Shown: positions 5,273 to 25,300 of the stretch, piece after piece | How positions within the stretch are numbered: the first letter of the stretch is position 1 | Layout of the letters: each line of letters begins with the position of its first letter | Assembly (NCBI GenBank): GCA_965262115.1 | Contig: OZ253496.1 | Coordinates: 512,001 to 576,000, forward strand | Direction: 5' to 3' | Source of the DNA: Nitrospinales bacterium | GTDB taxonomy: Bacteria; Nitrospinota; Nitrospinia; Nitrospinales; VA-1 | DNA: 64,000 nt | Notes under the pieces: model-generated | The model's database searches: none | The model's input: the letters and a program-made list of their open reading frames with translations, nothing else | What the model was told of the DNA's origin: nothing | Position numbers and translations under genes: made by a program

Positions 5273-5440
5273 ATGAGGAATTCGATAGCCAATCAGAGCA
5301 GTTTCACTTTGGTAAAGCTGTTAATCGTTACGGCTATTATAGGCATTCTCGCCAGGATCTCCATCCCCGGTATGGGTAGTTTAAGAAAACCAATCTCTCA
5401 TCCTTTTGTAACCTTTGCAATGCACTTATGTATGTGTTGA
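5273..5440 (+). pseudogene. Degenerate type IV prepilin N-terminus (remnant)
   Basis: Manual translation MRNSIANQSS-FTLVKLLIVTAIIGILARISIP; class III signal with G-1 changed to S and E5 changed to K, then no pilin body. Confidence 0.65.
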
Positions 5441-5799
5441 TTTATTTCATGCTCCCAAAAGCGGATCACCTTCCAACCGAGGGACTTTAAAGCTAGGTTA
5501 TTCTTTTTATCTCTCTCCCTATTTTTTCTGAATTTCTCTTCCCAATACTTGGAATTAGATTTTGGCGTTTGACCACATTTAAAGCACCCATGCCAAAAGC
5601 ACCCATCTAAAAAGATCGCCAATTTCTTCTTTGTAAATACTATATCCGGTTTTCCAAGAAGGTTTTTATAATTCTTTCTCCAACCTCTTATTCCTTTTTC
5701 CCAAAGTTCACGCCGGAATCTCAACTCAATCCCTGTATCAGCTCCTCTAATGGAACTCATTATCTCGGAGCACCGCTCTGAAGAGACCTTATCTACCAT
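5398..5799 (-). CDS. vsr: Very short patch repair endonuclease
   Basis: RxxxMSxI...T.IE...GKPDIV...AIFLDGCFWHGC...W..K...NRERD...GWKVIRFWEHE. Confidence 0.93.
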   Translation of the reverse strand: MVDKVSSERCSEIMSSIRGADTGIELRFRRELWEKGIRGWRKNYKNLLGKPDIVFTKKKLAIFLDGCFWHGCFKCGQTPKSNSKYWEEKFRKNRERDKKNNLALKSLGWKVIRFWEHEINQHIHKCIAKVTKG

Positions 5800-5853
5800 G
5801 ATCTTTTAAATATAGGAGGTTAATTAAAACTTTTTCAAATGGTTTCGCTGTGG

Positions 5854-5889
5854 ATGCTAATCATAGTCTGTAGAACAATAGTATGCCAT
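5854..5889 (+). promoter_or_regulatory. Putative C-box (controller-protein operator)
   Basis: ATGCTAATCATAGTCTGTAGAACAATAGTATGCCAT: two xATAGT half-boxes around a central GT, 20 bp upstream of the controller gene, as in C.AhdI/C.Esp1396I-type systems. Confidence 0.55.
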
Positions 5890-5908
5890 TTTCTAGAGTG
5901 CAAAAGCG

Positions 5909-6115
5909 ATGAAAAAGAAAACGTTGGTTCAATTTGGACAAAAAGCAAGAAAGGAAAGGCTGAAGTTGGGTCTTTCCCAAGAAAAACTTGCTGAAAAAGC
6001 AGGACTTCATCGCACCTACGTCGGAATGATAGAAAGAGCCGAAAAAAATATCACTTTAACAAACATAGAAAAAATTTCAAAAGCCTTGGGCCTTCGCCTC
6101 TCTGATTTAGTTTGA
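5909..6115 (+). CDS. XRE-family HTH protein, restriction-modification controller (C protein)-like
   Basis: LSQEKLAEKAGLHRTYVGMIERAEKNITL; lies between vsr and an REase/MTase remnant. Confidence 0.85.
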   Translation: MKKKTLVQFGQKARKERLKLGLSQEKLAEKAGLHRTYVGMIERAEKNITLTNIEKISKALGLRLSDLV

Positions 6116-6118
6116 AAA

Positions 6119-6423
6119 ATGGACCTCGTTGAAATACAAAAACTTTTAAAAAATAAAAACATAAAAGCTATGAACATAAGAGTTCACGGGGATGCAGTCG
6201 AAAAATATATAGATGTAGAGTTCTCCTATCCCGCCATAAGTAAGAAGTGGGAAGGGACGATTCCTTTTCATTACAAATATTCAGGGCTCCTCCTTCAAAA
6301 GCCAAAAGAAGTTGCAGATTTTTAGAGGATGCCTACGGCAAATTATCTCCAGAAAAAAGAGCTGAATGGGCACAACAACAACGTTCAATATGGAATAGCG
6401 AACATTCAAGGAGGGTTGTTACT
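6119..6423 (+). pseudogene. Truncated, frameshifted gene after the controller (probable restriction endonuclease remnant)
   Basis: ORF 6119-6325 continues in another frame after the T-run near 6320 (FLEDAYGKL...), then runs into antisense MTase sequence near 6423. The REase call is positional only. Confidence 0.5.
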
Positions 6424-6853
6424 GATGAAGTTCAGCGGCCGTTATTTCTTCAATGGGTTTTTCAATATGGACGCTTTGGGAAAAATTCTTTCTAATCGTG
6501 TCAGAGGCATATTTATTAATTTCTATACTTAATAATTTATTGAATCCTGCGTCTACAAAACCTTTGGACATTCCCCTTGCCCCAGAAAACAGATCAACAA
6601 AATTGTAATTAGCTTTTGATGACGTTATTTTGGCTGTGTCAATTTTTTCCCAATTTTGATTTGTTAAATCCTGGTCTAATTTACCCATCAAATTAGAATA
6701 ACTGCTGATGGCATTTTTAGCTCTGCTCTTGCTAAAACCTTTGAGGTTGGCAGATTTATTCATATCATTGTTGCGATTGCTCCCATAACGTTGTTCCTTA
6801 GGAACAAACTCACTAACATCAAAAAGGGCAACTTGTTTTTCAATCTTTTTCAT
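6419..6853 (-). pseudogene. C5 DNA cytosine methyltransferase, N-terminal fragment
   Basis: Motif I VDLFSGARGMSKGF (FxGxGG altered to FxGxRG), motif II IEIN, and motif III region. Stops before catalytic motif IV (PC). Confidence 0.85.
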
Positions 6854-7201
6854 ATTCTTGGAAAATTTCAGAACAACATTAGAACAACAAGCGAGTTTGC
6901 CCCCGCAAATATACAGCATCTATGAGAATGATCAATAAAAAAACGGGGCTGTCCTAAAGCGTTGAGAATATGAGCAAAGAAATGATAAGAATAATATAAT
7001 CCAAGGTGTAAAGAGGCACAATCACATACATAAGTTCTGCCTTCAACCTTTACAAGTTCCGCATTTCCATGCTACTCCCCCTTCCATACTTTGCAAGTAC
7101 ATCTGAAATGCTCATGACGTTGCTCTCTTTAGGTTGTAATTTTCACCCAATAAAGAAAAATGGCCTACAGCATTTTATCTGTCCATAGACCATTATTTTT
7201 A

Positions 7202-7278
<77 letters not shown>

Positions 7279-7464: not shown

Positions 7465-7642
7465 GTTTCGGAAGGGATGAGACGCATGACACTTAAGGCT
7501 GTGACAGATTTCCCGCAACCGGATTCACCCACCAGCACCAGGGTCTCGCCCTTGTGGAGGGTCAGGTCCATATTGTGCGCGGGGCTTTAACGATGTTTTC
7601 TTCGGTGTGAAAAAACGTGCTCAGGTCTTCAATTTCGAGCAT
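7465..7642 (-). pseudogene. Peptide/nickel ABC transporter ATP-binding subunit (DppD/OppD type), 5' remnant
   Basis: [20 protein letters not shown], a frameshift, then [32 protein letters not shown] (Walker A), then loss of homology. Confidence 0.85.
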
Positions 7643-7676
7643 GTTATCTTTGAAGGGGAAAAGGTGCCGGACCGGT

Positions 7677-8576
7677 TCAGGGATGGTCATGACCTTCGTG
7701 GTCGTCGTGCCCATCGTCTTCATCGAGGATATCTTCATAGCGGTATTCATCGTCCTCATCAATGTCGTAGCGGTTCAGCCTGGTATCAATTTTTTCCGAC
7801 CACAGATCAATGCCACCTTCCAGACACTTCATGTTGGTGAATCCTTTCTGGGTCAGCCATTTCTGAAAGCTGGGACTGCGATCCTGTTTCCAGTCGATCA
7901 AAACTATTTCGCGATCCTTTTCAAAGGTTCCCAGAATATGCTCATTATTTTCGGCATTGATGATGTGCGAACCCTCGATCCTGGAAATATCTCTTTCCCA
8001 GCTTTCGCGAATGTCCAGCAGGACGGGCTTGTTGCCGGAATAAATTTTTTGCTTCAGTTCCTCACAGGTCATGACGGCAATGTTTTTGTCTGCATGCTCC
8101 CTGTTCAGGCAGTTGATGACCTCTTGTATGTTTTTCCCATGGGTCTGGCATAGAGAGGCCAAGGTTTCGTCTTTATTATATGGAGTCATTGGCATACCAA
8201 TATGAAATTCCTTGAAGAGCACTGTATGAACCTCCGGAAAAATCTGGTTGGCCGATTCCATAGACAGCTCTGCATTGAACTCGCCTCCTGTTTTTTCCAC
8301 TTCAATTTCAGAAATTTTAAGGATGTGATAACCATATTGGGAATGAACCGGGCCGATAATATTTCCTGAATCAGCTTCAGAAAATTCCTGTCCCATAATG
8401 GATTGCAGATTGCCTTCTGGCATCCATCCCAAGTCACCAGAGTTTTCTTTGGAGGGGCAGGTGCTGAAGTTTGTCACCACCTCTTCAAAAGGAGTGCCGC
8501 TATCTAACTGTTTTTTTGCTGCAACGACATCTTCCATGGAATGGGTGAAAATCTGGCTCGCTCGAACCCGGATCAT
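7677..8576 (-). CDS. Parvulin (PpiC) PPIase + small helical domain + rhodanese-like domain fusion with Asp/His-rich tail
   Basis: FSTCPSKENSGDLGW...GPVHSQYGYHILKI (parvulin); LLDIRESWE...LEGGIDLWS (rhodanese fold); tail DDGHDDHEGHDHP. Confidence 0.85.
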   Translation of the reverse strand: MIRVRASQIFTHSMEDVVAAKKQLDSGTPFEEVVTNFSTCPSKENSGDLGWMPEGNLQSIMGQEFSEADSGNIIGPVHSQYGYHILKISEIEVEKTGGEFNAELSMESANQIFPEVHTVLFKEFHIGMPMTPYNKDETLASLCQTHGKNIQEVINCLNREHADKNIAVMTCEELKQKIYSGNKPVLLDIRESWERDISRIEGSHIINAENNEHILGTFEKDREIVLIDWKQDRSPSFQKWLTQKGFTNMKCLEGGIDLWSEKIDTRLNRYDIDEDDEYRYEDILDEDDGHDDHEGHDHP

Positions 8577-8894
8577 AGGCTTGTCTCCTGAGTGCTTGAT
8601 TTGTAGAGGGATATGATAGTATGTTAACTATTTGATGTCAAAAGTCAGTTCAAGGGAGCAAAATAACCGCTGGCACTCAAAACGATTGAAGTTTCAGGTC
8701 TTAAATATCATTTTGTCTAAGGGTTTGGTGGTATTGCGGAAAAACAGCGCAAACCCGGAACCATTAAAGACTAAGAAGTCTTATTATGGGAACGTTTTTT
8801 TAAGTTTGGTGATGATAGAAGAACTGACAGCCCTGCCAATGATATGGTGGGAAGGCACAGGCAAACCAAGCCTTTCGCTTTTCAAAGTAAGATT

Positions 8895-9317
8895 TTATTT
8901 ATACAACGCACTCAAATTCCGTTTAGCTTTAGCTTCCCCATTTTTATCCCTGTTCCTACGGAAAAGCCTTGCCGCAAACCTGGTATGAGCAATTGCATTT
9001 GCTTTGTCATCAACCAAACCAAATGCCTTACCAATATTCAAATGGGCATACGCATACTTCGGGTTAACTTTCAGGGCTTTTTTAAATTGACCCAAGGCTT
9101 CTGGAAAACGCTTTGCTCCCCAGAAAGCTTCTCCAAGCCTATTTAAATTAATTTCATCATCAGGCTTGATTTTTAGCTCACGTTGGTATGCCTGGACAGC
9201 ACCGTTAAAATTACCAAATTGTTGGTATACATCCCCTATATCTATATAGGCCTTGTAGTCTTTCGGGTTTTGCCGGATTCGATTTTTAAGAGTTTCCACC
9301 CTTTTCTCAGGTCGCAT
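8895..9317 (-). CDS. TPR repeat protein
   Basis: Three to four TPR motifs (AYIDIGDVY, LNRLGEAF, AHLNIGKAF). Confidence 0.85.
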   Translation of the reverse strand: MRPEKRVETLKNRIRQNPKDYKAYIDIGDVYQQFGNFNGAVQAYQRELKIKPDDEINLNRLGEAFWGAKRFPEALGQFKKALKVNPKYAYAHLNIGKAFGLVDDKANAIAHTRFAARLFRRNRDKNGEAKAKRNLSALYK

Positions 9318-9372
9318 AACATGGTTTATTTCACGGCTAATAAACGTAGACTTCAGAGATAACTGTCAATAT

Positions 9373-10260
9373 CTAATGCCCTGCCACCTTTCTTTTCATC
9401 TTTTCCTGGCTAACTGTAACTTCACGAACTGGGAATTCAAAACCCAAATCTAATACCTGCCCATTGGTCAACTCTATTTCTTTCTCAATAATATGCGGCT
9501 CATCATAAACCGGTCGTTTGTCTGCCGCAAACTCCTTTATGTTGTAACCCTCATGCCATGCTATCAGTTTATATTTTCCTGGAGGTATGTCTTTAATTTC
9601 AAAAGCTCCATTTTTATCTGAAATACTGAAGTATGGATGCGGCAATCCAAGCATCCATCCATTCATATGTATATGAGTATCACATTGATATCGATTGATT
9701 CCTCTCACTCTCTTAAGCTTTTTCCTGGTCATCCGATTCCGGTCCGGGAGTGGCGTATTAAACAAGGTAGCCCCATTTGATCCGAATGCGTGGGGATTAT
9801 GCAAAAGATTTTCCATATTATATAAACCAACATTTCTAGTATATACAAAACCAAAAACATGCTCTTCAAAGTTACATAATTGGCTCTCAGGGCGCTGGTT
9901 TTTATCAAGACCGGCATGAAGCACTTCTGGACTATTAACTTTAATCTTTGCTTTTTTATCTGCAAGCGGTTTACCTTCTGGTACCGCTTCAAGATAGACA
10001 GCTGTGAACTTGACACCTCTATTAGTCGGGTTAACCACCAGAGCAGGGTTGAAAACCTCCTGGCCACATTTATCCATATGTTTAAAAACGGTTATCGGTG
10101 GTAGTGCCGGTATATCCCCTTTCCATTTAGCGACACCCCTGATTGTCGCCCCATTTCCAACCTCTATTTCTTTATATTTGATTTTGGCTGCAATAGCAGA
10201 GCCTGCACCAAAATTCATGATCATAGTGGCAAATGCCATAACAAACACTATCTTCTTCAT
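9373..10260 (-). CDS. Exported cupredoxin-like / carboxypeptidase-regulatory-like domain protein
   Basis: Sec signal (AIA-A); LHNPH and C-x2-H-x2-M (YQCDTHIHM); GAFEIKDIPPGKYKLIAWHE beta-sandwich motif. Confidence 0.8.
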   Translation of the reverse strand: MKKIVFVMAFATMIMNFGAGSAIAAKIKYKEIEVGNGATIRGVAKWKGDIPALPPITVFKHMDKCGQEVFNPALVVNPTNRGVKFTAVYLEAVPEGKPLADKKAKIKVNSPEVLHAGLDKNQRPESQLCNFEEHVFGFVYTRNVGLYNMENLLHNPHAFGSNGATLFNTPLPDRNRMTRKKLKRVRGINRYQCDTHIHMNGWMLGLPHPYFSISDKNGAFEIKDIPPGKYKLIAWHEGYNIKEFAADKRPVYDEPHIIEKEIELTNGQVLDLGFEFPVREVTVSQEKMKRKVAGH

Positions 10261-10281
10261 AGTTTGTTCCTCAAATTATAA

Positions 10282-10452
10282 TTACGAAACCTCGTTGCAG
10301 TCGCCATCTTCCAATACGCAAACAAAGGGTAGCATCTCTCGCCACCACCCACAACAAAGACCATACAACAGACCAGCAGGTCCTATAGGCGATGCCAACC
10401 ACTTCCCCATCCCACCTTGCCGTTTGGCTTTTTCTAATGCGCCAAACGGCAT
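10282..10452 (-). CDS. Unannotated 56-aa Cys/Trp-rich peptide
   Basis: MPFGALEKAKRQGGMGKWLASPIGPAGLLYGLCCGWWREMLPFVCVLEDGDCNEVS*. GGGGTGAG RBS; fills the gap between 10466 and 10260 with 13-bp and 21-bp spacers. Confidence 0.7.
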   Translation of the reverse strand: MPFGALEKAKRQGGMGKWLASPIGPAGLLYGLCCGWWREMLPFVCVLEDGDCNEVS

Positions 10453-10465
10453 ATCTCACCCCCGT

Positions 10466-13400
10466 TTAATTATTTGAATAACCTCGATGCGTTACAACTT
10501 TTGCACTTTGGTCAGAAACAGCCTCAGAAGGCTGATCGGAAATGCCGCCTGGGCTCTTGGAATCAGCAACCTCGGTCGCATCACCACCAAGTAACTCAAC
10601 AGGTTTCCGGGCATAAAAAACTTGTGTTTCATTGTTATATGAGAGCGTAAGGCTAAAGTTGTCTTCTGGCCACCCAGTTGCTACTTTTATTTGTCCTTTT
10701 GCTCCACCACTTTTTTCAGCTTCAATTAATTTTTGAATAATATTAATTGGCTTACCAGTCTTTGCAACATCTCTTTGCAAATTCATTATTAAAGCAATAT
10801 CTTCCCTTGTCGCGGGCTTCTTCTTCCCCCGAACATAAGATCTTGAGATAAAGAAATACGGGTCTTTAGGCGGGAACTGAGGAAACGCATAACCATTTTG
10901 TACATCCACAAAAATCTTTTTAAACTCATCACTTTGAATGTAATCAACGATCTTGTATATTTCCTCTTTTGTCAAAACTGATCCCATCCCATCACGATTT
11001 CCGATCCCCCACTCTGGCATTAGTCTTGTAAAACGTCCATTGTGAGGAACTTCAAACATATCATCACGGGTCCTGACAAGTGAATCTGCCTCATAAGAGA
11101 TCCCCGTGATTCCTTCCCCGGTATAACCGTGACAATGCGCACAGTTCATCTCGAAAATTTGCCGTCCTGTCAAAGTAGAACCTCGTTTAAATGGTTTTGC
11201 AGGCGGCAAAGTTTGAACCGTTCCATCCCAACGCAAAAGCTCCCCTCTTTGCTCCCAACCTTTTTCATCAACCATAACTTCATAGTCGATTTTGACTGGC
11301 AGTTTCATTTCTTCAGAAGCTTTCTCCTGGGATAGAGCTTTGTATGCGTAACGGATATCTCCTCCATACATTTCAGCCCAGTGCTTTTGTCCTTTCAAAT
11401 TGTTAAAAGCCTTGTTTTCTCCAGGATTGGCTATATTTACAGCCACTTCAAGTGCCAGCGTTGGAGCAATCCCAAATTCCCCATCGCCACTACCAAGCCA
11501 AGGAACGCCATCGTTATCCCAGTCCCTTGACCCAACACCAATCGCTAACTCACCACTTCTGTTTTCTTCTGACTGTATCATTCCTGTCATCATCAAAGTC
11601 TGCACTGACCAACGGGAAAACTTGCTTACCAATGGTTTGGTCATATGTATAGGAGTAGCAAACATCATTTCCCGATACGCGCGCAACTGAGCCGAAATAT
11701 CTAAAGAATGAATCCTCACAGTATCATCGCCCAAACGACTCCTGAACAGACCAGTTGGTTCGTGCCAAAAATTTTCCCAAATATAATTCCAGGTTTGTCT
11801 TGCCCCTTCAACATATTCAAGATCATCCGTAAGTTTATATGCTTCAAGCAAAGCAAAAACTCCCGTAAAATTTGGGCGGCCTAAATCACATGCGCCAGTT
11901 GGTTTTGAGGAAGTAACATCATAAGAAACACAAAACTCCCCATTTTCTCCCTGAACACCCAACAGGAAGTCGGCATTCTTTTTGAGTAACTCCGTAGCCA
12001 GCTTTGTCAATTCTGGTTCCAGGTCATCCTTGTCAGGTGTTGCAAGAAGTGCCTGGGGATCTCGCATGCGGTCTACATACTCTTTTAACCCGATAAATGT
12101 CAATCCCATGTCTGTAATCTTTATTTCATTACCTACTCCAGGATTTTTAAGTTTCTTTCCAATCCACCAGCTGGTTTTTTTGGGTTCCCATGTCGAAACA
12201 AGAATACCGTTCCTGGTATGCATCGCTACGATATTCCTCAGGACCATATTTGCCAGATAATGCGGTACCGCGCCAAGACTTTTCTCAAGTATCCCTCCGT
12301 CTACAGGCGGATTGTCTGTAAACATGTCTGTCATCCTGTATGTTGTCTGAAAGAAGTGTGAGTTTCCCCAAAGTAACGCGCCTTGATCAAAAAGCAAACT
12401 TCGCGGATCATCTACCTCAAAGCCCCACTGGCGCTCTGGAAGATCACCGGCAAGAAGCAAGTTAGGCCAAATTCTGTGCGGAAAATATCTCAGCCCATTT
12501 TTGGGGTCATAAGTCGCGGGATTGATTCCACCCAATTCACCATCCTCGTTGGCGACCAACTGGGCTTTTAACGCCAAAACCTGATTAGCTCTTGTCGTAG
12601 CCAAGGCCATACCCCTGAACCCTTCCTCAGCGTCATTTCCAGCCAAGACAATTCTCTTGGCCTGGTTGCTGGGAGACTCACCTGTATGAGTAGCTTTCCA
12701 CATATAGTCCACCCACATACTAGCCCTTTTAAGCATAATTCCAACGCCACCCATATCTATGTACTTAACCATTTTGTCGCGATCCCATCTCCACTGCCTG
12801 TTACTGAAAAAGTATTTAGGCACCCCCCATTTTCCATTCTTCCCGCTTTGGGGGTCAACAAAGTTATCAGCAACGGGAGTTGGGGCAACAAAATGCGGAT
12901 CACCCGATTCAAACTCCAGGTATGCGGGTTGGCCATCATCTGGAAACCTCGGAATCCCAACACGTTTCCAAACTAGTGGAAAGTACCACTGAAGCATCAC
13001 GTCTTTATTAGATAAGGTGCGCTCCCCGCGATCTCTCTCAAGACGATTATATGAGGATAATTCTAATGCCTTCATGGTGAAATAAGGGCCATTCACCATA
13101 TTTATTCCGGCGTGGCTTGCAGCAAAACCAAAACCCAGGTTATTTCGAGCACTCCAATACATTTGTTGATTGGTCATCCAAATGAAAGCCGCGTTGTGCT
13201 CCAATGGCAGGGCTGCCCGGACCATATTTGATAAACCTGTTTGACTGATTTCAAACTCTTCATTAGCCGCCCATTGTTGGTACTTGGGTTTAAAGGTCCT
13301 ATCAAGGATTTTTACTTCTGGAAGTTTGCTCCTGTAGGGGCTTAAGTCAGGCTGAAATGTTCCTTCTTTGAGAATAACCATTCTGCCATCAGGTGTGTTT

Positions 13401-13516
13401 ATGTAGTAGTCCGCGTTTGCCGTGGATGACATGAGAAAAACCAAAAAAAGAGAAAAACATATACCATGTGCTTGTCTAAAAAGTGCTTGTCTAAAAACCG
13501 TATTTAAATTATTCAT
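10466..13516 (-). CDS. Large exported protein with C-terminal monoheme cytochrome c domain and a probable (alpha/alpha) barrel segment
   Basis: Signal peptide ending ANA; a single CAHCH with downstream LMPEW (candidate axial Met); ALLEAYKLTDDLEYVEGARQTWNYIWENFW helical-barrel-like motif; DWDNDG Ca-binding-like motif. Confidence 0.85.
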   Translation of the reverse strand: MNNLNTVFRQALFRQAHGICFSLFLVFLMSSTANADYYINTPDGRMVILKEGTFQPDLSPYRSKLPEVKILDRTFKPKYQQWAANEEFEISQTGLSNMVRAALPLEHNAAFIWMTNQQMYWSARNNLGFGFAASHAGINMVNGPYFTMKALELSSYNRLERDRGERTLSNKDVMLQWYFPLVWKRVGIPRFPDDGQPAYLEFESGDPHFVAPTPVADNFVDPQSGKNGKWGVPKYFFSNRQWRWDRDKMVKYIDMGGVGIMLKRASMWVDYMWKATHTGESPSNQAKRIVLAGNDAEEGFRGMALATTRANQVLALKAQLVANEDGELGGINPATYDPKNGLRYFPHRIWPNLLLAGDLPERQWGFEVDDPRSLLFDQGALLWGNSHFFQTTYRMTDMFTDNPPVDGGILEKSLGAVPHYLANMVLRNIVAMHTRNGILVSTWEPKKTSWWIGKKLKNPGVGNEIKITDMGLTFIGLKEYVDRMRDPQALLATPDKDDLEPELTKLATELLKKNADFLLGVQGENGEFCVSYDVTSSKPTGACDLGRPNFTGVFALLEAYKLTDDLEYVEGARQTWNYIWENFWHEPTGLFRSRLGDDTVRIHSLDISAQLRAYREMMFATPIHMTKPLVSKFSRWSVQTLMMTGMIQSEENRSGELAIGVGSRDWDNDGVPWLGSGDGEFGIAPTLALEVAVNIANPGENKAFNNLKGQKHWAEMYGGDIRYAYKALSQEKASEEMKLPVKIDYEVMVDEKGWEQRGELLRWDGTVQTLPPAKPFKRGSTLTGRQIFEMNCAHCHGYTGEGITGISYEADSLVRTRDDMFEVPHNGRFTRLMPEWGIGNRDGMGSVLTKEEIYKIVDYIQSDEFKKIFVDVQNGYAFPQFPPKDPYFFISRSYVRGKKKPATREDIALIMNLQRDVAKTGKPINIIQKLIEAEKSGGAKGQIKVATGWPEDNFSLTLSYNNETQVFYARKPVELLGGDATEVADSKSPGGISDQPSEAVSDQSAKVVTHRGYSNN
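13468..13497. repeat. 15-bp perfect tandem duplication (GTGCTTGTCTAAAAA x2) in the signal-peptide region
   Basis: Visible directly; in-frame, gives FRQALFRQAH. Confidence 0.9.
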
Positions 13517-13553
13517 TTAATTTACCTGACTTGAAAGGTTCGGTTAAATTGAT

Positions 13554-14873
13554 TTAGAAAGTTACTGACATACCCAGATTCGCCACATAAGGCGGACTTG
13601 GACCCTTGTGAGGTTGCACAACTCTACCCAAGAGAGTTGCCGTAAACCTGACCAAAGGGTCTGGGCTAAAAATAATACTTGGACCGACAAGGCTGAGCCA
13701 ACCACCACGAAAATTGGGTCGATCCTTGGTATCCTCACTATTAGGAAATCGAAACTTACCTCCGTAAGTATCTTGTTCTTGCCAGTTTGATATGCTGGAC
13801 AATTGAACGGAAAAGTAGTCCTTATAGACAGGTATAACTATTGAACCAAAAATAGTCGCCAGATCTCCCCGGTTTACGCCATCATGCTCCGCGTTAAATC
13901 TATAAGCTCCGCCCCAGTGGATTGCGGCGCGATCAAAAGGCGTTCCTGCCAGAAAATCCGGGAGGTCACCAGGCAGAAACTGACGAGTAAAAAACGTAGC
14001 AACCTTGTATGACATTTCACCTGTACCCAATTGCCTTCCTGCTGGAAGCGTTCCGTCATTCGTAAATCTTTTGAATACTGGCCGCCCACCCTTTTGCCCA
14101 CCTTTGGGAGTAACAGAAATCACACCATTGTCTCCCGCCCTTTTATTCGTTGATCCGTTGGGGAAATAGACCCCTGCGGCTACCGCCCACCCAACAGGCG
14201 CATTACCCTGATCCCAGATTTTCTTTTTAAACATCAAATTAACATCCTGAATCCCTTCTGACGCTCCTCCATTAAAAACACTTTTAGCCCCATTGCCAAT
14301 ATGAGGCAACTGCACTGGCCCACGGCTGGTAGAGTTCTCATAAGTAACGTTCAGCACGGCTGTAAAACTATGAAAAAACTTCTTGTCCAGATCAAATCCA
14401 TAGCGCAGGGAAGTCGTTAAAAACCTTCTCTGAGCGGTATTATCGACATGAATCAGATCAATCTCTCCATCTTTCGTAAAGTCTTCGCCTTCGACGTTCA
14501 CAAACTTGAAACTTGTAGCTACTTGAAAAAGGCCAGGCGGGAGAACAAACGCGTGGCCGCCAACAGCAGGTACCAGCAAAGGCGGTATGAAGTTCTTTAC
14601 CTGAACCTTGATAAGGTCACGTTCTAATATCGTGAATTTTTCATCAACACCAAGATTTAAAAAACGATCCTCAAATCTTCGGCCCTGCAAATAATCACTA
14701 TCATGTACTTCAGCCGGAGCAACGACTGGAGAGGGCAGTTGATCTTTTTTGTCAATCCTACTGTCAGCCGCCAAAAAAAGGGGGGGGGTGGCACAAAAAA
14801 TTATTGATCCAACCAACAATATCAAGACCAACCTGTAAGGATAAAACTTAACCTTGGATAGCATGGGTAACAT
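13554..14873 (-). CDS. Putative outer-membrane beta-barrel transporter/porin (ORF extends to 14999; likely start 14873 or 14864)
   Basis: Signal-like hydrophobic N-terminus, alternating amphipathic strands, G-x-x-D-x-x-L-x-x-K motif (GIQDVNLMFK), and C-terminal Phe (LGMSVTF). Confidence 0.75.
   Translation of the reverse strand: MLPMLSKVKFYPYRLVLILLVGSIIFCATPPLFLAADSRIDKKDQLPSPVVAPAEVHDSDYLQGRRFEDRFLNLGVDEKFTILERDLIKVQVKNFIPPLLVPAVGGHAFVLPPGLFQVATSFKFVNVEGEDFTKDGEIDLIHVDNTAQRRFLTTSLRYGFDLDKKFFHSFTAVLNVTYENSTSRGPVQLPHIGNGAKSVFNGGASEGIQDVNLMFKKKIWDQGNAPVGWAVAAGVYFPNGSTNKRAGDNGVISVTPKGGQKGGRPVFKRFTNDGTLPAGRQLGTGEMSYKVATFFTRQFLPGDLPDFLAGTPFDRAAIHWGGAYRFNAEHDGVNRGDLATIFGSIVIPVYKDYFSVQLSSISNWQEQDTYGGKFRFPNSEDTKDRPNFRGGWLSLVGPSIIFSPDPLVRFTATLLGRVVQPHKGPSPPYVANLGMSVTF
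14773..14788 (-). repeat. C9-T7 homopolymer tract in the signal-peptide coding region of the beta-barrel gene
   Basis: A7G9 on the + strand, encoding T-P-P-L-F-L; currently in frame. Confidence 0.85.
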
Positions 14874-15013
14874 CAGTTCTTTCTTCAATTTAGGATTCCT
14901 AACAATTAAGGTTATGAAAATCAGGTGCGAAATTATGAACGACATAGTTGGAAAGGAGAAGCAGATGACTCTCTGGCCATTCCTCTGCATAATCCCCATG
15001 CCTTAACTGATTA

Positions 15014-15482
15014 AAGCGTATCACAAACTACAAGCTGAAGCGTATCACAAACTACAAGCTGAAGCGTATCACAAACTACAAGCTGAAGCGTATCACAAAC
15101 TACAAGCTGAAGCGTATCACAAACTACAAGCTGAAGCGTATCACAAACTACAAGCTGAAGCGTATCACAAACTACAAGCTGAAGCGTATCACAAACTACA
15201 AGCTGAAGCGTATCACAAACTACAAGCTGAAGCGTATCACAAACTACAAGCTGAAGCGTATCACAAACTACAAGCTGAAGCGTATCACAAACTACAAGCT
15301 GAAGCGTATCACAAACTACAAGCTGAAGCGTATCACAAACTACAAGCTGAAGCGTATCACAAACTACAAGCTGAAGCGTATCACAAACTACAAGCTGAAG
15401 CGTATCACAAACTACAAGCTGAAGCGTATCACAAACTACAAGCTGAAGCGTATCACAAACTACAAGCTGAAGCGTATCACAA
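15014..15482. repeat. Perfect tandem repeat of 24-bp unit AAGCGTATCACAAACTACAAGCTG, 19 full copies plus 13 bp
   Basis: Exact 24-bp periodicity with no spacers and no variant units seen. Confidence 0.97.
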
Positions 15483-15579
15483 GGGCCATGACTATCATGA
15501 CTGTAATGTAAGGTACCGCCTGATAGCAGAGTTTATTCTGACTACTGGAAAGGCATAATACATTGGATGTTTCGGATTT

Positions 15580-15709
15580 CAGACACTAACCAGACACTAA
15601 CTGGTGGTACAAAGCCGATGTTGCTTTGTGCTAAACTGTAAGGTGAACCGAAAGAAGGGGCAGTCTCTATGTCTATTAGACTATTACAGGTTACATAGAC
15701 TATTACAGG
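15580..15709. repeat. Short direct repeats: CAGACACTAAC x2 (15580-15601) and TAGACTATTACAGG x2 (15677-15709)
   Basis: Visible directly; periods of 11 bp and 19 bp. Confidence 0.85.
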
Positions 15710-15872
15710 AATTGTTTTTATTGTGATTAATTAGAGGTAGTGCTAATTCTCATGGGAACTAAAGTCGTTCCTCCAAAGTGAAAATCATGTTGTTGAACGA
15801 TTTGGGGAATACACGAAAACCATTTTCCGGTGATTCGAGGCGTTTTCGCAAAAACCATGCCTCATCGAAGAT

Positions 15873-16517
15873 ATGAGCATTGAAAACCCGGAAAATTTCT
15901 CCCCTTCTTTTTCTCAAGACTGGCACACGAAAGATCTGGAAATGATCAGCCATATTGAGGTATTTCAGAAGAAACCCGTCATACTTAAAAAGGTTGAAAG
16001 CCGTCTAAACAAACTTAAAGAAGCAATGGCTGTCGAGTTGCTGTCTTGTGTTCACCAATTACCACCAGGAACAGATATTGAAAAAGGACAAATTGCCAGA
16101 GGTGAGAATCATAACGAGTTCCCCTTTTTGTCTCTGGATATTCCACAGAACTTTTCCAAAACCGAGATGTACACCTATCGAACCCTCTTCTGGTGGGGGC
16201 ATTATCTTGGGTTTTCCCTGATCTTGAAAGGTGACAAGCTAAAAATCTATTTTCAACGCCTATCCACCGCCTGCAACGAACCGTCCTTTCAGGATGTCTA
16301 CATCTCTCTGGCCCTCACCCCGTGGGAATGGCGCCATGGCAAGAAATATTTCGCGCCAGTGAGCAACCAACAGGCCTGGACTGACCCATCAAACCTTTTA
16401 GATCATATGAAGATCATGCGGTTTTATTCTGTCGCTGATGAATCGTTTAAAGAGTTAGACTGGACAGAAGCCGGAATAAAGTTCTGGAAGGACATGGCCC
16501 CTGTTTGCCTGGGTTGA
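15873..16517 (+). CDS. Conserved-looking hypothetical protein
   Basis: 214 aa; motif-like IARGEN...PFLSLDIP...YRTLFWWG. Confidence 0.75.
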   Translation: MSIENPENFSPSFSQDWHTKDLEMISHIEVFQKKPVILKKVESRLNKLKEAMAVELLSCVHQLPPGTDIEKGQIARGENHNEFPFLSLDIPQNFSKTEMYTYRTLFWWGHYLGFSLILKGDKLKIYFQRLSTACNEPSFQDVYISLALTPWEWRHGKKYFAPVSNQQAWTDPSNLLDHMKIMRFYSVADESFKELDWTEAGIKFWKDMAPVCLG

Positions 16518-16549
16518 CCACACCCTCTGTAACAAATAATTCAACCTTG

Positions 16550-17059
16550 TCATTTTTGCACATATACCAATGGATGTTTCCAAAGGATTTTACTGGCGGG
16601 GATCACTCTCAGCTTTCCAGAGCTTGAAAAATCTTTAAAGAGCAAGACATGGTGCAGGGACGGGGCTATGGGGGAAATCCGGCTATCCGGAACATGCAGG
16701 GGAGTTGGAACCATGAACACTTTTCGTCTGCTGCCCGCGCTTTCTTCAGGAATTTCTTTTTGCATCCATTTCCCTAAAAATGGAAACTCCTCTTGAACCC
16801 CAACCGCATAAATATTTTCCAACGCAGTCCCATCCGTTTTTGAAAAAACAGCCAGACAGCCTGGCGGCAAAAATGGAGTGTGACAAGCGTCTTCGATTCT
16901 CACCCCGTAGCATGAATCCGGCAGTTCCATTGGCGGGGATATTCTGGTATAATTATTTGAAAGAAAAACCTTTTTCCCCCTCTCAGCACCGGGCTGCCTA
17001 CTTTCCCGGCTGGAGGAAAATGAGACCAGGGGAATGGAAATCTTGGAATCGTTCTTCAT
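16550..17059 (-). CDS. Hypothetical protein, possibly a degenerate S24/LexA C-terminal-like fold
   Basis: 169 aa; YGVRIEDACHTPFLPPGCLAVF loosely resembles F(A/G)LRVxGDSMxPxxxxGDxxxV but lacks the catalytic Ser. Confidence 0.55.
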   Translation of the reverse strand: MKNDSKISIPLVSFSSSRESRQPGAERGKKVFLSNNYTRISPPMELPDSCYGVRIEDACHTPFLPPGCLAVFSKTDGTALENIYAVGVQEEFPFLGKWMQKEIPEESAGSRRKVFMVPTPLHVPDSRISPIAPSLHHVLLFKDFSSSGKLRVIPASKILWKHPLVYVQK

Positions 17060-17232
17060 AGCTTTTTTCTGTTCCCTGACAAAACAGATTACAGAATTGA
17101 ATAGTTTTATATTGCTTAGGCACTTAATATTTACTGGACTATGCGTTTCATACTTTTTCCAGATGCCTTATTTTATTTGCAGAAGAGAGCATCCATAACT
17201 CTAATAAATTATTCCATACATTATAATTTTTC

Positions 17233-18564
17233 ATGAATGAATCCAATTATCAAGAGGCTCTAAACTACCTCTACAGTCTTACACAAAGCGGCATCAAACT
17301 TGGACTTAAAAATACCGCTCGGATTCTTCAACATTTCGGTGATCCTCAATTAAAAACGACCACCATTCATATCGGTGGCACCAATGGTAAAGGATCTACT
17401 GCGGCGATCACAGAATCCATTTTAAAAACATCGGGCTATAAAGTTGGGCTTTATACCTCTCCACATCTGTTGGATTTTCGCGAGCGCATACAGATTAACC
17501 GCAGAATGATCGAAAAACAGCAAACTACGGACCTGATCTTAAGAATTAAATTGGCTGTGGAAAGCCTGAAAATCCCCATCACATTTTTTGAGTTCGGAAC
17601 TATTTTAGCCTTTCTTCATTTTCGCGAACAAAATACCGATATAAACATTATTGAAGTCGGACTGGGGGGTCGGCTGGATGCCACCAATCTTTGCAAAGCC
17701 GAAATATCCATTATCACGTCCATATCCCTGGACCATACTCAATATCTTGGAGAAGATCTGAAACAAATCGCCTTTGAAAAGGCCTCAATTATAAAGGAAA
17801 ACGGTATAGTATTTGCCCATATCCCTGAAGAGGAACTGTTTCAAGTCGTCAAGAATTCGGCCAGAAAGTGTTCAGCAGACCTTTACCGGTCGGGAGTGGA
17901 TTTCCAGGTGACCCCTGAAGCCGGAAATGAAGAGAAAAACATCTTCAGCTACAAGTGGGGCTCCCGGGTTCTAAATAACCTGATTCTGTCCCTTAATGGC
18001 CATTTTCAAAGGAATAACGCAGGGTTGGCCCTGTCAGCTTGTTTGAAGTTAAATGAACGCGGGCTCAATATTGAAGAAAAACACATAAGGCAAGGCTTGG
18101 AAACGGTTACCTGGGAAGGCCGGTTGGAAACAGTTTTCTCGCACCCCACAGTGGTGTTGGATTGCGCCCACAATGGAGCCAGCGTCAGAAACATGACACT
18201 GGAATTGCGCAAAAACTTTAAGTTTTCCCGCTGTTTTATTGTTTTGGGACTCATGCAGGACAAAAAAATTGATGAAGTCATCAAAATTTTAAGTCAGTTT
18301 GGGGATCAGTTTTTCCTGGTATCGGTCAATCCTCCTCGGGGAGAAGCTCCAGAAAAACTGGCTGAGAAACTGAAAGTTCACAATAAACCGTCTCAGGTTT
18401 TCGGGACTGTTTTTGATGCGTTACAAGCTGTAAAACAAATCGCCAATCAGGACGACCTGATTTGTATCACGGGTTCCATTTTCCTGATTGGCGCAGCCAA
18501 AAAATGTTTTAACGATGAAAACACTTCTTTTAGTTCTGGGAATATTCTTCACTCTGACGAGTGA
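17233..18564 (+). CDS. folC: Folylpolyglutamate/dihydrofolate synthase
   Basis: IHIGGTNGKGST, YTSPHL, EVGLGGRLDATN, LDCAHN, TGS. Confidence 0.96.
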   Translation: MNESNYQEALNYLYSLTQSGIKLGLKNTARILQHFGDPQLKTTTIHIGGTNGKGSTAAITESILKTSGYKVGLYTSPHLLDFRERIQINRRMIEKQQTTDLILRIKLAVESLKIPITFFEFGTILAFLHFREQNTDINIIEVGLGGRLDATNLCKAEISIITSISLDHTQYLGEDLKQIAFEKASIIKENGIVFAHIPEEELFQVVKNSARKCSADLYRSGVDFQVTPEAGNEEKNIFSYKWGSRVLNNLILSLNGHFQRNNAGLALSACLKLNERGLNIEEKHIRQGLETVTWEGRLETVFSHPTVVLDCAHNGASVRNMTLELRKNFKFSRCFIVLGLMQDKKIDEVIKILSQFGDQFFLVSVNPPRGEAPEKLAEKLKVHNKPSQVFGTVFDALQAVKQIANQDDLICITGSIFLIGAAKKCFNDENTSFSSGNILHSDE

Positions 18565-22391: not shown

Positions 22392-25300
22392 ATGAGTACT
22401 ATTTCAGTGAAGCCCCTTTCCTCAGAAGATCGTGATCGGGTTCGGCAAATTGTATTGAACGCCAGTGAGCCAATTGCGCCGTTTTGGCCCATGCGGACCA
22501 TGATCGCGCAGAATCCCATTCATGGATTGGAATATCTGCCGTTTGATCAGGCTGTTCGAAAAGGCCAGGCCCTCCTTGGTGGAAATGGGTATCTTGCGAA
22601 TGAGGAGTATCGTCAATTTTACCGAAACGGCCGTATTACCAAAGAAAGTTTTAAGCGCGCTTTTTCCAGGGTTGGGCCTCGCCCCGATGGACAGGTTTTT
22701 ATTGAAGTTGGAAGTCGAAAGGTTACCCCAAAAGATGCTTGGCAATTACACATACTTTTTGGCTTCGAGGAATTGCCATTATCCCTCTTGGAATGGGAGT
22801 TAAGCGGTGGTGGAGCTACAAAACAGTTTCGGCAAGATCTTTCCGAGGAATCCCAGAAACAAATTATTGAGCAAACCATCAAAGAATGTGAACAGTGTCC
22901 GGTGTATCCAGAAGAGGCCTACCTGACGAATTTATGGAAGAGTGTGTTAGCCACCTTCGGGCTATCTGATTTTCATGCTTCATCTCAAATATCTGGGGAT
23001 TCGCATTCGCAAACTTCAGCACCCATTTCCTTGTCGCCTCAACAGACCATCAGCGATTGGGTTGATGGTTTGACTGAGGGTGGGGTGGTCGACCAAGTCA
23101 ATAATCAACTCATAGAATGGGTGGCGGCGTTTCTCGATGAAGGATTAGCCGGCTGGGAAATGCCTGGCCGAGAAGTAGGTTTCTACCAAGTATGGCGGAA
23201 CCTGGCGCAGAAAGATTTTTCGGGGCAGCTTCTCGGGATTACAGATTTCGCCCAAAAAGTTCATAGCCTTCCTGCAGCTCCAGAGGACGCGATCCGTTCC
23301 AGCTTGCACCAACTCGAAATTCCCCAAGAACAATGGGAAGATTATCTCTCAAGGCAACTATCATTATTACCAGGCTGGACGCGATACATACGGTGGCTTG
23401 GGGAACACCCAACCTACCATGCGCAACACAAACATCCCATTGACACCACACAATATCTGGCCGTGCGTTTATTCTATGAAATGGAGTTGACCAACATTAA
23501 GTGCCAGCAAGAATGGGGAATTGATGGGACCGTTTCTACCCTGACTGCATATTGGAATGATCGACCCAAAGAATACCACCAACAAAGTTGGCATGGAGTG
23601 CAATCTGGGAATCAAACTAAACAGATGAAATGTCGATATGCTTGGCGATTATTCCATTTGGCACAGTTTCTTGAGTTATCTCCAAGAGAAGTTCAAGATC
23701 TCTCGCTTACTAATGCCCAGATGTTGTTGCAATGGTTAGATCACTTTCCTGCTGATCAACATGGAAGGGTATGGATTGAGGCATACGAAGATTCCTTTCG
23801 AGAGAAGATGCTGAGAAATATTTCAGCGCATCGCGGAACGGTACCAGAATTGGAAACTCGTCCCCATGCACAACTAGCCTTTTGTATCGACGTACGTTCC
23901 GAATCATTTCGTCGCCATATTGAAGCCCAGGGTTCCTATGAAACGTTTGGGTTTGCAGGGTTTTTTGGCATTCCCATTAGCCATCAAGCTTTTGATAGTA
24001 ATCAACGTTACTCTTTATGTCCGGTATTATTGACTCCTAACCATGCGGTAACGGAATCACCTCGGTCGGGAGAGGGAGCGGCGTTAGAAAAATATTCTTC
24101 TGGTACTCGCTGGTACCAACTGGGGCACCATCTTTTTCACGACCTGAAACATCATCCTATTGGGTCGATGATGATGATTGATGTATTGGGATTCTTTTTT
24201 AGTCTGGGGTTGGTGGGCAAGACCTTGTTCCAAAAAAGATTTCGTGGAATGACCTCTACTATCCAGAGTTGGTTGACGCATAGGGTTCCAACCCAGATCT
24301 CAATTTCCACGCCATCTAATCCTCAAAATCCCAGGATCGGAGAAGTGAATGCGGAAGGGATTCCTGACAGGCTTTCTCGGGGGTTTTCTCTTTCGGAACG
24401 GGCGATATTTATCAAAAATGGTTTGCGTGCTATGGGGTTCACCAAAAATTTTGCTCGTTTGGTGTGCCTCTGTGGCCATGGGAGTGAGACCGACAACAAT
24501 CCCTACTATGGGGCGTTGGATTGCGGGGCTTGCGGGGGAGCACCGGGCGATGCAAATGCGCGAGTTTTTGCCGCGATGGCGAATGAACCTGAAGTTCGTC
24601 GCATTCTCAAGGAAATAGGGTTGCCGATTCCCGATGACACCTGGTTTCTTCCGGGGAAACATAACACGACGACTGATCGGGTCGAGTTTTACGATCTAGA
24701 GGAACTGCCTGATTCGCATAAAGAATATTTTCAGGCGTTGAAAAAGAATCTCGAAGAAGCTGGTGCGAAGCAGGCTCTTGAGCGATGCCATCGCATTCCC
24801 AGTGCTCCGACTGAAATTTCTCCAGAGCAGGCTTTTGCTCATGTAGACGAACGCAGTTGCGATTGGGCGAATACTCGACCGGAATGGGGATTAGCGGGCA
24901 ATGGCGCATTTCTCATTGGAAAACGAAAACTGACCAAAGGGTTAGATTTAGGCGGTCGGGTTTTCTTGCATTCTTATGATTCTGCTGATGATCCCCAGGG
25001 AGCCATCCTCGAAAATATCATGACTGCGCCATTAATTGTCGGCCAGTGGATTAGCACAGGCTATTATTTTTCTACGGTTGATCCGTGGGTGTATGGAAGT
25101 GGCAGCAAGGTGTTGCACAATGTCGTCGGGGGTGTTGGGATGATGCTGGGAAGCCAAAGTGATTTGCAAATGGGATTCCCCTTACAAACAGTTAATAACG
25201 GAGAAACTCATTATCATGAACCTATGCGACTCTTAGCTATCATCGAACAGACACCGAGTGTAATCTCATCTGTCATTCAAAAACACTCGATCCTTCAACA

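Follow-up and report, generated by a model that had tools for sequence, protein, structure and literature searches.

Periplasmic enzymes that pass electrons to small copper proteins are known from several chains, namely methylamine dehydrogenase-amicyanin-cytochrome c551i, and quinohaemoprotein alcohol dehydrogenase or p-cresol methylhydroxylase with azurin. A further layout is the rus operon of Acidithiobacillus ferrooxidans (cyc2-cyc1-cup-coxBACD-rus), Cyc2-type proteins being cytochrome-porins. Here, a gene cassette of a Nitrospinales bacterium, a marine relative of nitrite oxidizers, was analyzed and compared with these systems. The window, i.e. the whole stretch of DNA that was analyzed, comprises 64,000 nucleotides (contig OZ253496.1, positions 512,001 to 576,000) and is part of a 2.68-Mb single-contig genome. 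By comparison with related loci, the conserved unit of the cassette consists of three genes, coding for a predicted outer-membrane channel, a 1016-amino-acid (aa) fusion of an (alpha/alpha)6 six-hairpin domain with a cytochrome c, and a 295-aa copper carrier. The module probably represents an undescribed respiratory enzyme.

As in the dehydrogenase-cupredoxin chains, an exported c-haem enzyme would, by analogy, hand electrons to a small blue-copper protein. The copper partner matches amicyanin (E 3e-9) with the same C-x2-H-x2-M spacing, and MauG-like proteins are encoded near the channel-enzyme pair in 5 loci. Unlike those enzymes, the large protein is built on an (alpha/alpha)6 barrel instead of a beta-propeller or flavoprotein, and no tryptophan tryptophylquinone (TTQ), pyrroloquinoline quinone (PQQ) or flavin adenine dinucleotide (FAD) signature was found in it. 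The cupredoxin is extended by a further region at its N-terminus and by a prealbumin-like domain at its C-terminus, and a dedicated channel belongs to the unit. With the rus system the module has in common that several loci (L004, L007, L008 and others) encode an outer-membrane barrel, cytochrome c, cupredoxin and terminal oxidase in one operon; 8 loci fuse the barrel to a monohaem class-I cytochrome c, a likeness to Cyc2 in layout. In contrast to rus and Cyc2, the barrel of the window is haem-less, 12-stranded and COG4313/FapF-like, the oxidase of the module is of the OR-N bd-like type, and the 700-aa central six-hairpin domain has no counterpart.

A third point of comparison is a module of cupredoxin-like proteins, a bd-like OR-N oxidase and mono- and dihaem cytochromes c, described beside the nitrite oxidoreductase (NXR) in Nitrospina, where it is assumed to accept electrons from a periplasmic oxidoreductase, and in the NXR clusters of Nitrospira and Kuenenia (PMC3578206). 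Components of the same kinds accompany the channel-enzyme pair in Gemmatimonadota and Alphaproteobacteria loci. The own genome also holds a paralogue of the 295-aa protein beside a trihaem cytochrome c-EB_dh protein. In the present loci, the six-hairpin/haem protein and the outer-membrane channel stand in place of the molybdenum enzyme of NXR. An earlier note on this DNA had recognized no described pathway with this layout. Literature searches likewise found no published description of a COG4313-like channel combined with a six-hairpin/cytochrome c protein; such operons may be shown in the bd-superfamily preprint's supplement, which covers OR-N operon contexts.

Relatives were collected by a scan of one genome per GTDB species. 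97 stretches encode a relative; retaining the 80 best of them gave 78 distinct loci. Open reading frames (ORFs) were called and clustered in these loci, and fragments <600 aa and contig-end ORFs were dropped, leaving 63 complete large-protein homologues. The closest public record to the window is L002, a Nitrospinales metagenome-assembled genome (MAG) chromosome with 94% protein identity. In the window, five co-oriented ORFs are separated by 37, 13, 21 and 55 bp from the channel gene to the tetratricopeptide repeat (TPR) gene (Table 1), in agreement with the coordinates and spacing noted earlier. Further in-frame ATGs of the channel gene are found at 14864 and 14999 (longest ORF 13554-14999). 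Signal peptides were assigned by eye from the N-termini; those of the channel, the 1016-aa and the 295-aa products are signal-peptide-like, which fits the three signal peptides that had been claimed. No RNA family was detected with Rfam at E≤1 in window positions 8000-17500, and promoter and terminator scans gave site numbers no higher than in shuffled sequence.

The three genes recur together. A barrel homologue is encoded directly upstream of the large gene, on the same strand, in 48 of the 63 complete relatives, which upholds the dedicated outer-membrane channel of the earlier note, and a homologue of the 295-aa protein lies within 3 kb of the large gene in 21. A synteny search for all five genes, which the note had proposed as a check, thus bore out the channel, large and cupredoxin genes but not the peptide and TPR genes, which never recur with them.

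The signal peptide of the 1016-aa protein ends at ...STANA/DYY. Its homologues fall into 72 clusters, none of which is functionally named. An AlphaFold2 (AF2) model was computed with 39 homologues and reached a predicted local distance difference test score (pLDDT) of 87.5 and a predicted template modelling score of 0.89. In this model, the segment that the earlier note had called helical-barrel-like is predicted to be an (alpha/alpha)6 barrel with beta-hairpin inserts, an assignment also given by Foldseek and VIA. VIA retrieved GH105, YteR, mannose isomerase, cellobiose 2-epimerase and a DsbH-linked (thioredoxin) barrel (7tkv) at Z 18-22, with 300-350 residues aligned at 8-10% identity and no single family standing out. 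The best Foldseek matches of the domain are cellobiose 2-epimerases (E 3e-5, probability 1.00). A profile of the six-hairpin domain alone matched a cellobiose 2-epimerase in the Protein Data Bank (PDB) with E 6.6e-8; the match is confined to the generic helical-hairpin repeat and aligns to three hairpins of the same enzyme.

Thus the fold is held in common with the AGE superfamily and six-hairpin glycosidases (cellobiose 2-epimerase, N-acylglucosamine 2-epimerase, YihS-type isomerases, GH105/GH88, YteR), at 8-13% identity and with a profile signal in the hairpin repeat. The large protein differs from these by ~300 extra insert residues, including two beta-hairpin inserts and the DxDxDG loop, and, unlike them, it is exported, fused to a cytochrome c and has no Pfam AGE match (PF07221, GlcNAc_2-epim; Pfam at E≤0.1). 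A PF07221 match is precomputed for one relative (P0033), and a PF07221 search of 120 Nitrospinota genomes gave only weak partial matches, in ~735-aa proteins. Searched as a single sequence against PDB, the protein gave cytochrome c matches only, and Pfam and NCBIfam matched nothing outside the cytochrome c (residues 782-862), which agrees with the large unrecognized part noted earlier. A feature search of the Atlas returned clusters labelled only 'hypothetical', 'transporter' or CarboxypepD_reg. For the six-hairpin family, no Pfam model and no characterized member were found. Family-wide conserved residues of the domain are Y344, H347, D370, S373, D377, W383, H433, R615 and E650. 54 columns are invariant in the 39-sequence alignment, among them D665, D667, D669 and G670 of the DWDNDG loop, which we take to be of the Ca-binding type.

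Residues 782-862 are predicted to form a class-I cytochrome c (PF13442, 29.7 bits, cut-off 27; PF00034, 28.9 bits, cut-off 21.3). A profile of the haem domain matched CcoP with E 8.4e-13, and its nearest relatives are CcoP, cytochrome c subunits of bc1 complexes and cytochrome c6. C792, C795, H796 and M833 are ≥90% conserved in the alignment, and the near-invariant M833 is the likely distal haem ligand. The single CxxCH (from residue 792) and single DxDxDG motif (from residue 665) are as reported before.

The 295-aa protein consists of an N-terminal region, an amicyanin-like cupredoxin domain (residues ~125-205) and a C-terminal prealbumin/CarboxypepD_reg-like beta-sandwich. As a single sequence it gave nothing meaningful against PDB and matched no NCBIfam family. 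A family profile matched amicyanin (1sf3/1aac) with E 3e-9 (3.1e-9) to 1e-8 over chain residues 20-104, i.e. nearly the whole chain, and the alignment pairs PHNVH and C-x2-H-x2-M and thereby all four ligands. N148 is present in all of 28 family members, and H154, C193, H196 and M199 each in at least 90% of them. The C-terminal part of the family matches beta-sandwiches of the NOMO/CarboxypepD_reg type by profile, with a weak Pfam CarboxypepD_reg match at residues 213-268, and some distant members are named 'plastocyanin' by the Joint Genome Institute (JGI). From these matches, the protein is a predicted amicyanin-like type-1 copper cupredoxin and putative copper binder, and the type-1-copper-like ligand set proposed in the earlier note is confirmed at the profile level. 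Given the full ligand set, a haem-to-copper electron path is plausible.

Four paralogues of the 295-aa protein are encoded elsewhere in the own genome. At L088 (G000:C1:697001-709000), a second redox cluster, a 673-aa trihaem cytochrome c-EB_dh fusion is encoded between two of them, next to a multicopper-oxidase-like gene. At L087:1126-2505, a 295-aa-like domain is fused to an exported N-terminal TPR region, and the Met ligand position is altered.

A full five-gene operon, as claimed in the earlier note, would make the Cys/Trp-rich 56-aa peptide a real product (e.g. metal-binding or modified) and the TPR protein an assembly factor. This is very improbable. Neither the ORF nor the TPR protein matched any of the 78 loci (tblastn, E≤1e-3), and both are missing from L002, where only the first ~35 nt of the TPR gene are left and a ~80-nt partial copy of the cupredoxin gene's own 5' end (11050-11139) replaces the spacer with the 56-aa ORF. 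Contigs of a third population (X6) skip both stretches as well (TPR skip 8774-9284), while three runs from the window's own population (X1, X3, X4) have the same form as the window, which, together with the 13-55 bp spacing and a Shine-Dalgarno-like GGGGGTGAG upstream of the 56-aa ORF, favors real genes. The TPR fusion of the paralogue at L087 also speaks for the five-gene operon, the TPR similarity being generic at 25% identity. Against it, the gap between large and cupredoxin genes measures 62-97 bp in other Nitrospinota loci versus the 205-bp spacer here, a terminator-like hairpin (10327-10350) lies inside the peptide ORF, the Cys/Trp-rich stretch of which is the translation of the G-rich hairpin stem, the TPR protein lacks a signal peptide, and no peptide-modifying enzyme is encoded nearby. 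The ORF also matched no NCBIfam or Pfam family. Hence the 56-aa ORF is probably no conserved gene, and the TPR gene is best described from these alignments as an adjacent strain-variable gene outside the conserved module. Two related candidates were rejected: a ribosomally synthesized and post-translationally modified peptide or copper peptide, because no modifying enzyme and no conservation were found, and a synthase-dependent exopolysaccharide system (barrel, six-hairpin hydrolase and TPR protein), since a synthase is lacking and the TPR gene is not a conserved member.

In the channel, the signal peptide is followed by a conserved N-terminal periplasmic/plug segment and a 12-stranded beta-barrel; the C-terminus reads ...VTF. 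Its AF2 model (pLDDT 79.2) was superimposed on the COG4313 channel Pput2725 (4rl8) with VIA Z 24.1 and root-mean-square deviation 2.8 over 258 of 267 residues, including the N-terminal lumen segment, and matched FapF with VIA Z 22.7 and Foldseek E 1.5e-12. The modelled fold is therefore a 12-stranded COG4313/FapF-like barrel. No Pfam family (PF13557 included) was matched at E≤0.1 and no NCBIfam family; a feature search of the Atlas retrieved clusters with PF13557 in 21-26% of members, which is a lead only. Identity to COG4313 proteins (Pput2725, TcpY, SphA) and FapF is 13-16%. In contrast to these, the channel has ~60 extra conserved periplasmic N-terminal residues and is coupled to a putative redox enzyme instead of a catabolic operon or amyloid system. 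It contains no CxxCH and hence no haem motif. A barrel protein with a full N-terminal class-I cytochrome c domain is encoded in 8 loci. COG4313 channels have been linked to the entry of small hydrophobic compounds (PMC4493636). Export of the large protein through the barrel in the manner of FapF was rejected because a folded, haem-loaded protein would not be able to cross a 12-stranded barrel. A porin-cytochrome complex of the MtrAB type was also rejected, as the module has a single haem and a 12-stranded barrel, versus a multihaem cytochrome in a large barrel. In a Methylococcales MAG (L042 4278-7938), it is the channel gene upstream of the large gene that is split in two by an IS66-family transposase gene on the opposite strand.

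Redox carriers accompany most relatives. A fused haem motif is present on the large protein in 36 of the 63 complete relatives, and some haem or copper carrier, fused or nearby, in 59. Together with the signal peptides and the lack of a published description, this supports the exported, redox-linked and undescribed system of the earlier note; its alternative of metal acquisition found no specific support. In most haem-less forms the cupredoxin gene lies upstream. One relative (P0259) carries a different cytochrome type, PSCyt1, fused to the six-hairpin domain, and five Sericytochromatia loci encode a separate 120-131-aa cytochrome c directly downstream of the large gene. In 8 loci (L004, L007, L008, L011, L016, L019, L035, L074), the channel-enzyme pair occurs with a ~610-710-aa OR-N-like CydA ('bd-like'), together with several cytochromes c, cytochrome c-EB_dh fusions and up to 3 cupredoxin paralogues in the operon. 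For the OR-N oxidases, cytochrome c is the presumed electron donor (PMC10839748; bioRxiv 10.1101/2021.01.16.426971). Two CydA-like (OR-N 'bd-like') genes are present in the own genome, far from the cassette. Genes for MauG/cytochrome c peroxidase (CCP)-like dihaem proteins adjoin the pair in 5 loci (L005, L013, L029, L045, L049), and sigma-54 or LuxR-type two-component systems are frequent neighbors.

In a Phycisphaerales MAG (L029 12020-17809), the pair is followed by two MauG/CCP-like dihaem genes and then by an arsenite-oxidase-like large subunit (Rieske_3 and Molybdopterin). In a Nitrospinaceae MAG (L003 12398-14575), a Cache/HAMP/PAS histidine kinase and LuxR-type regulators precede the three-gene module; 3' of it follow a Tll0287-like protein with two CxxCH and a protein with an FGE-sulfatase domain.

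The six-hairpin profile was also run against 1.84 billion representatives and matched 138 clusters at E≤1e-30; the number rose to 384 at E≤1e-10 and to 1062 at E≤1e-3. Proteins of 1.2-5.7 thousand residues (P0170, P0172, P0175, P0176 and others) are among the best 150 matches and hold one or two copies of the domain. Of these 150, 19 were scanned with Pfam: 11 carry surface-type repeats (DUF11, some also CARDB, SdrD_B or bMG-type), one PSCyt1 (P0259), one FlgD_ig and six no Pfam domain. The conserved residues were then counted in 18 domain copies from 15 proteins >1200 aa. Y344 and D377 are kept in all 18, S373 in 17, H433 in 16, D370 in 15, H347 and W383 in 14, and R615 and E650 in 13. At the DxDxDG loop, 14-15 of the 18 copies show gaps, and for two of its three Asp positions a single copy retains the Asp. 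CxxCH occurs in one of the 15 proteins (P0263).

Table 1. Positions of the cassette genes, their motifs and neighboring features in the window.
Feature	Position	Strand	Basis or remark
tRNA-Arg(CCT)	7202-7278		adjoins cassette segment
Parvulin-type peptidyl-prolyl isomerase (PPIase)-rhodanese fusion gene	7677-8576	-	no signal peptide; C-terminal Asp/His-rich tail (...DEDDGHDDHEGHDHP)
140-aa TPR protein gene	8895-9317	-	ORF; Pfam TPR families
295-aa cupredoxin gene	9373-10260	-	ORF
C193-D-T-H196-I-H-M199, three of four type-1 copper ligands	9664-9684	-	sequence
H154, fourth type-1 copper ligand	9799-9801	-	sequence
56-aa Cys/Trp-rich ORF	10282-10452	-	ORF
1016-aa six-hairpin/cytochrome c fusion gene	10466-13516	-	ORF
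Class-I cytochrome c domain, residues 782-862	10931-11173	-	Pfam
CxxCH, residues 792-796	11129-11143	-	haem attachment
(alpha/alpha)6 six-hairpin barrel domain, residues ~70-710	11387-13309	-	AF2 model; beta-hairpin inserts
DWDNDG loop, residues 665-670	11507-11524	-	D665, D667, D669, G670 invariant in 39 sequences
Channel gene	13554-14873	-	ORF; 439 aa from probable start ATG 14873
1004-aa DabA homologue, probable inorganic-carbon transporter subunit	22392-25406	+	Pfam E 1.4e-265; few kb from cassette

The three-gene unit is tentatively read as a channel-fed periplasmic redox enzyme chain that runs from substrate to haem, copper and oxidase, and this is given somewhat less than an even chance. 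It builds on the observed folds, ligands, synteny and accessory status; docking of the partners, catalysis, direction and substrate would be its suppositions. A small molecule or ion would enter via the 12-stranded COG4313/FapF-type channel. The 1016-aa protein would bind and transform it in the six-hairpin pocket, where a metal or another cofactor is probably held by the invariant Tyr/His/Asp/Ser/Asp/Trp/His/Arg/Glu cluster. From this site, electrons would reach the fused His/Met haem c, be handed on to the amicyanin-like copper protein and finally arrive at a cytochrome-c-oxidizing terminal oxidase, for which the own genome would offer its two OR-N 'bd-like' oxidases encoded elsewhere. The oxidative direction, with the substrate as donor, is favored because some operons end in an oxidase. 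More far-reaching, and unlikely, would be a role of the six-hairpin domain as the catalytic subunit of a new respiratory enzyme class with a metal or protein-derived cofactor, which would oxidize an unrecognized donor delivered through its own channel and be one of the natural donors to OR-N 'bd-like' oxidases. Several observations weigh against a channel-fed redox chain. Four of the 63 complete relatives have no carrier nearby, 15 lack an adjacent barrel, and the 23 of 27 haem-less forms with a cupredoxin or CxxCH neighbor within 3 kb were counted without a chance baseline for CxxCH neighbors. No oxidase gene is adjacent within the window, and the two cultured carriers, Shewanella hanedai and Pseudocolwellia agarivorans, have channel and enzyme only, in unrelated contexts. 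The structural neighbors of the six-hairpin domain are all sugar hydrolases, isomerases, lyases or terpene cyclases. The domain lacks an assignable redox cofactor, and we know of no redox enzyme that uses the (alpha/alpha)6 six-hairpin fold. The giant proteins keep the core residues without haem, so the site would need no electron partner intrinsically; from these alignments it appears older and more general than the haem coupling and could be a metal or a sugar-type site.

The conservation of the site in haem-less giants keeps two other explanations in play, both of which are judged improbable to the same degree. One is an electron-consuming enzyme, in which haem c and cupredoxin would feed a metal site, either of a reductase or of an O2/H2O2-activating enzyme resembling lytic polysaccharide monooxygenases with their cytochrome donors. 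The dihaem peroxidase genes of the MauG/CCP type beside the pair in 5 loci are consistent with it, the conserved His/His/Tyr/Asp cluster could bind a metal, and haem-less extracellular giants that keep the site could use small-molecule reductants. However, a co-operonic OR-N oxidase with multiple cytochromes c, as in 8 loci, is the usual donor chain to oxygen, and no histidine brace or other known oxygen-activating motif was identified. The other is a non-redox six-hairpin enzyme (hydrolase, lyase, epimerase or isomerase) that acts on a compound imported through the channel, with haem and cupredoxin as accessories for sensing or docking, or for processing of the product. It would account for the best structural matches (GH105/GH88, YteR, cellobiose 2-epimerase, mannose isomerase, GH76; Z 17-22), the profile match to cellobiose 2-epimerase, an invariant Asp/Glu/His/Arg/Trp/Tyr set typical of sugar sites and the existence of haem-less giant surface proteins that share the domain. 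Yet the profile match is confined to the generic hairpin repeat and hits three hairpins of one enzyme, Pfam GlcNAc_2-epim does not match the window protein, and no sugar transporters or kinases are conserved nearby. Moreover, electron carriers joined the enzyme several times independently (as class-I or PSCyt1 fusion, as separate cytochrome c, as cupredoxin or as cytochrome on the barrel), which is hard to explain for a non-redox enzyme. Slightly less probable again is a chain for Fe(II) or Mn(II) oxidation at the outer membrane, similar to Cyc2-Cyc1-cupredoxin-oxidase, in which the acidic pocket would bind the cation and the barrel would admit the cation or export the product. Operons with the order barrel, cytochrome c, cupredoxin and oxidase, the barrel-cytochrome c fusions in 8 loci and an invariant site rich in carboxylate and His are in line with this, and OR-N oxidases are reported to be expressed in a Mn-oxidizing member of the Nitrospirota (bioRxiv 10.1101/2021.01.16.426971; PMC9040806). 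On the other hand, the window barrel carries no haem, and channels of its COG4313 type are associated with hydrophobic molecules, not with ions. The fused cytochromes are ordinary periplasmic class-I domains without an in-barrel haem, and many carriers of the module are heterotrophs not known as metal oxidizers.

The 78 loci are distributed over Nitrospinota, Gemmatimonadota, Planctomycetota, Acidobacteriota, Alpha-, Gamma- and Deltaproteobacteria, Methylomirabilota, Verrucomicrobiota, Bacteroidota, Sericytochromatia and others. Within Nitrospinota, the large gene was found in 6 of 120 genomes, 5 of 57 high-quality genomes and 3 of 23 genomes of the same genus (own genome counted). Window positions 7474-14900, comprising the PPIase-rhodanese gene and the cassette, are inverted relative to L002 6615-13391, while the flanks are collinear and the genomes ~93-95% identical. 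Different extra genes lie at the inversion junctions; in the window, these are a Vsr endonuclease gene and a truncated C5-methylase gene (5398-6919). The cassette is accessory in Nitrospinota, as noted earlier, because it is present in 6 of 120 genomes, neighbors tRNA-Arg and is inverted compared with a close relative. The GC profile that had been suggested as a check was run as well, and the cassette (0.40-0.47) is not distinct from its flanks. Its location between housekeeping genes holds for one flank (Mur-ligase/FolC-like gene and LptD) but not for the other, which consists of the Vsr/methylase remnants and the tRNA.

The sequence immediately upstream of the channel gene (15014 to 15482) is a perfect tandem repeat with a 24-bp unit (AAGCGTATCACAAACTACAAGCTG; 19.5 copies, 100% identical). 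It forms one end of the inverted segment and is found nowhere else in the genome, and short-read contigs end there. Candidate roles are promoter spacing, phase variation and a recombination site. The PPIase-rhodanese gene accompanies the cassette in the window genome and L002, and the tail of its product looks metal-binding.

New in this analysis are the amicyanin match, the fold family of the barrel, the barrel-cytochrome fusions, the OR-N context, the giant haem-less relatives and the exclusion of the peptide and TPR genes. If the large protein were a glycan enzyme with an attached haem, the architecture would still be unusual and the interest narrower. If it oxidizes its substrate, it would represent a new catalytic fold among respiratory dehydrogenases and a concrete candidate donor for OR-N bd-like oxidases, the function of which is an open question in nitrifier bioenergetics. 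The module is within experimental reach through its cultured carriers, Shewanella hanedai JCM 20706 and Pseudocolwellia agarivorans QM50. Should the unit indeed be a new respiratory enzyme, it would point to an unrecognized energy source for nitrite oxidizers, methanotrophs and many marine heterotrophs.

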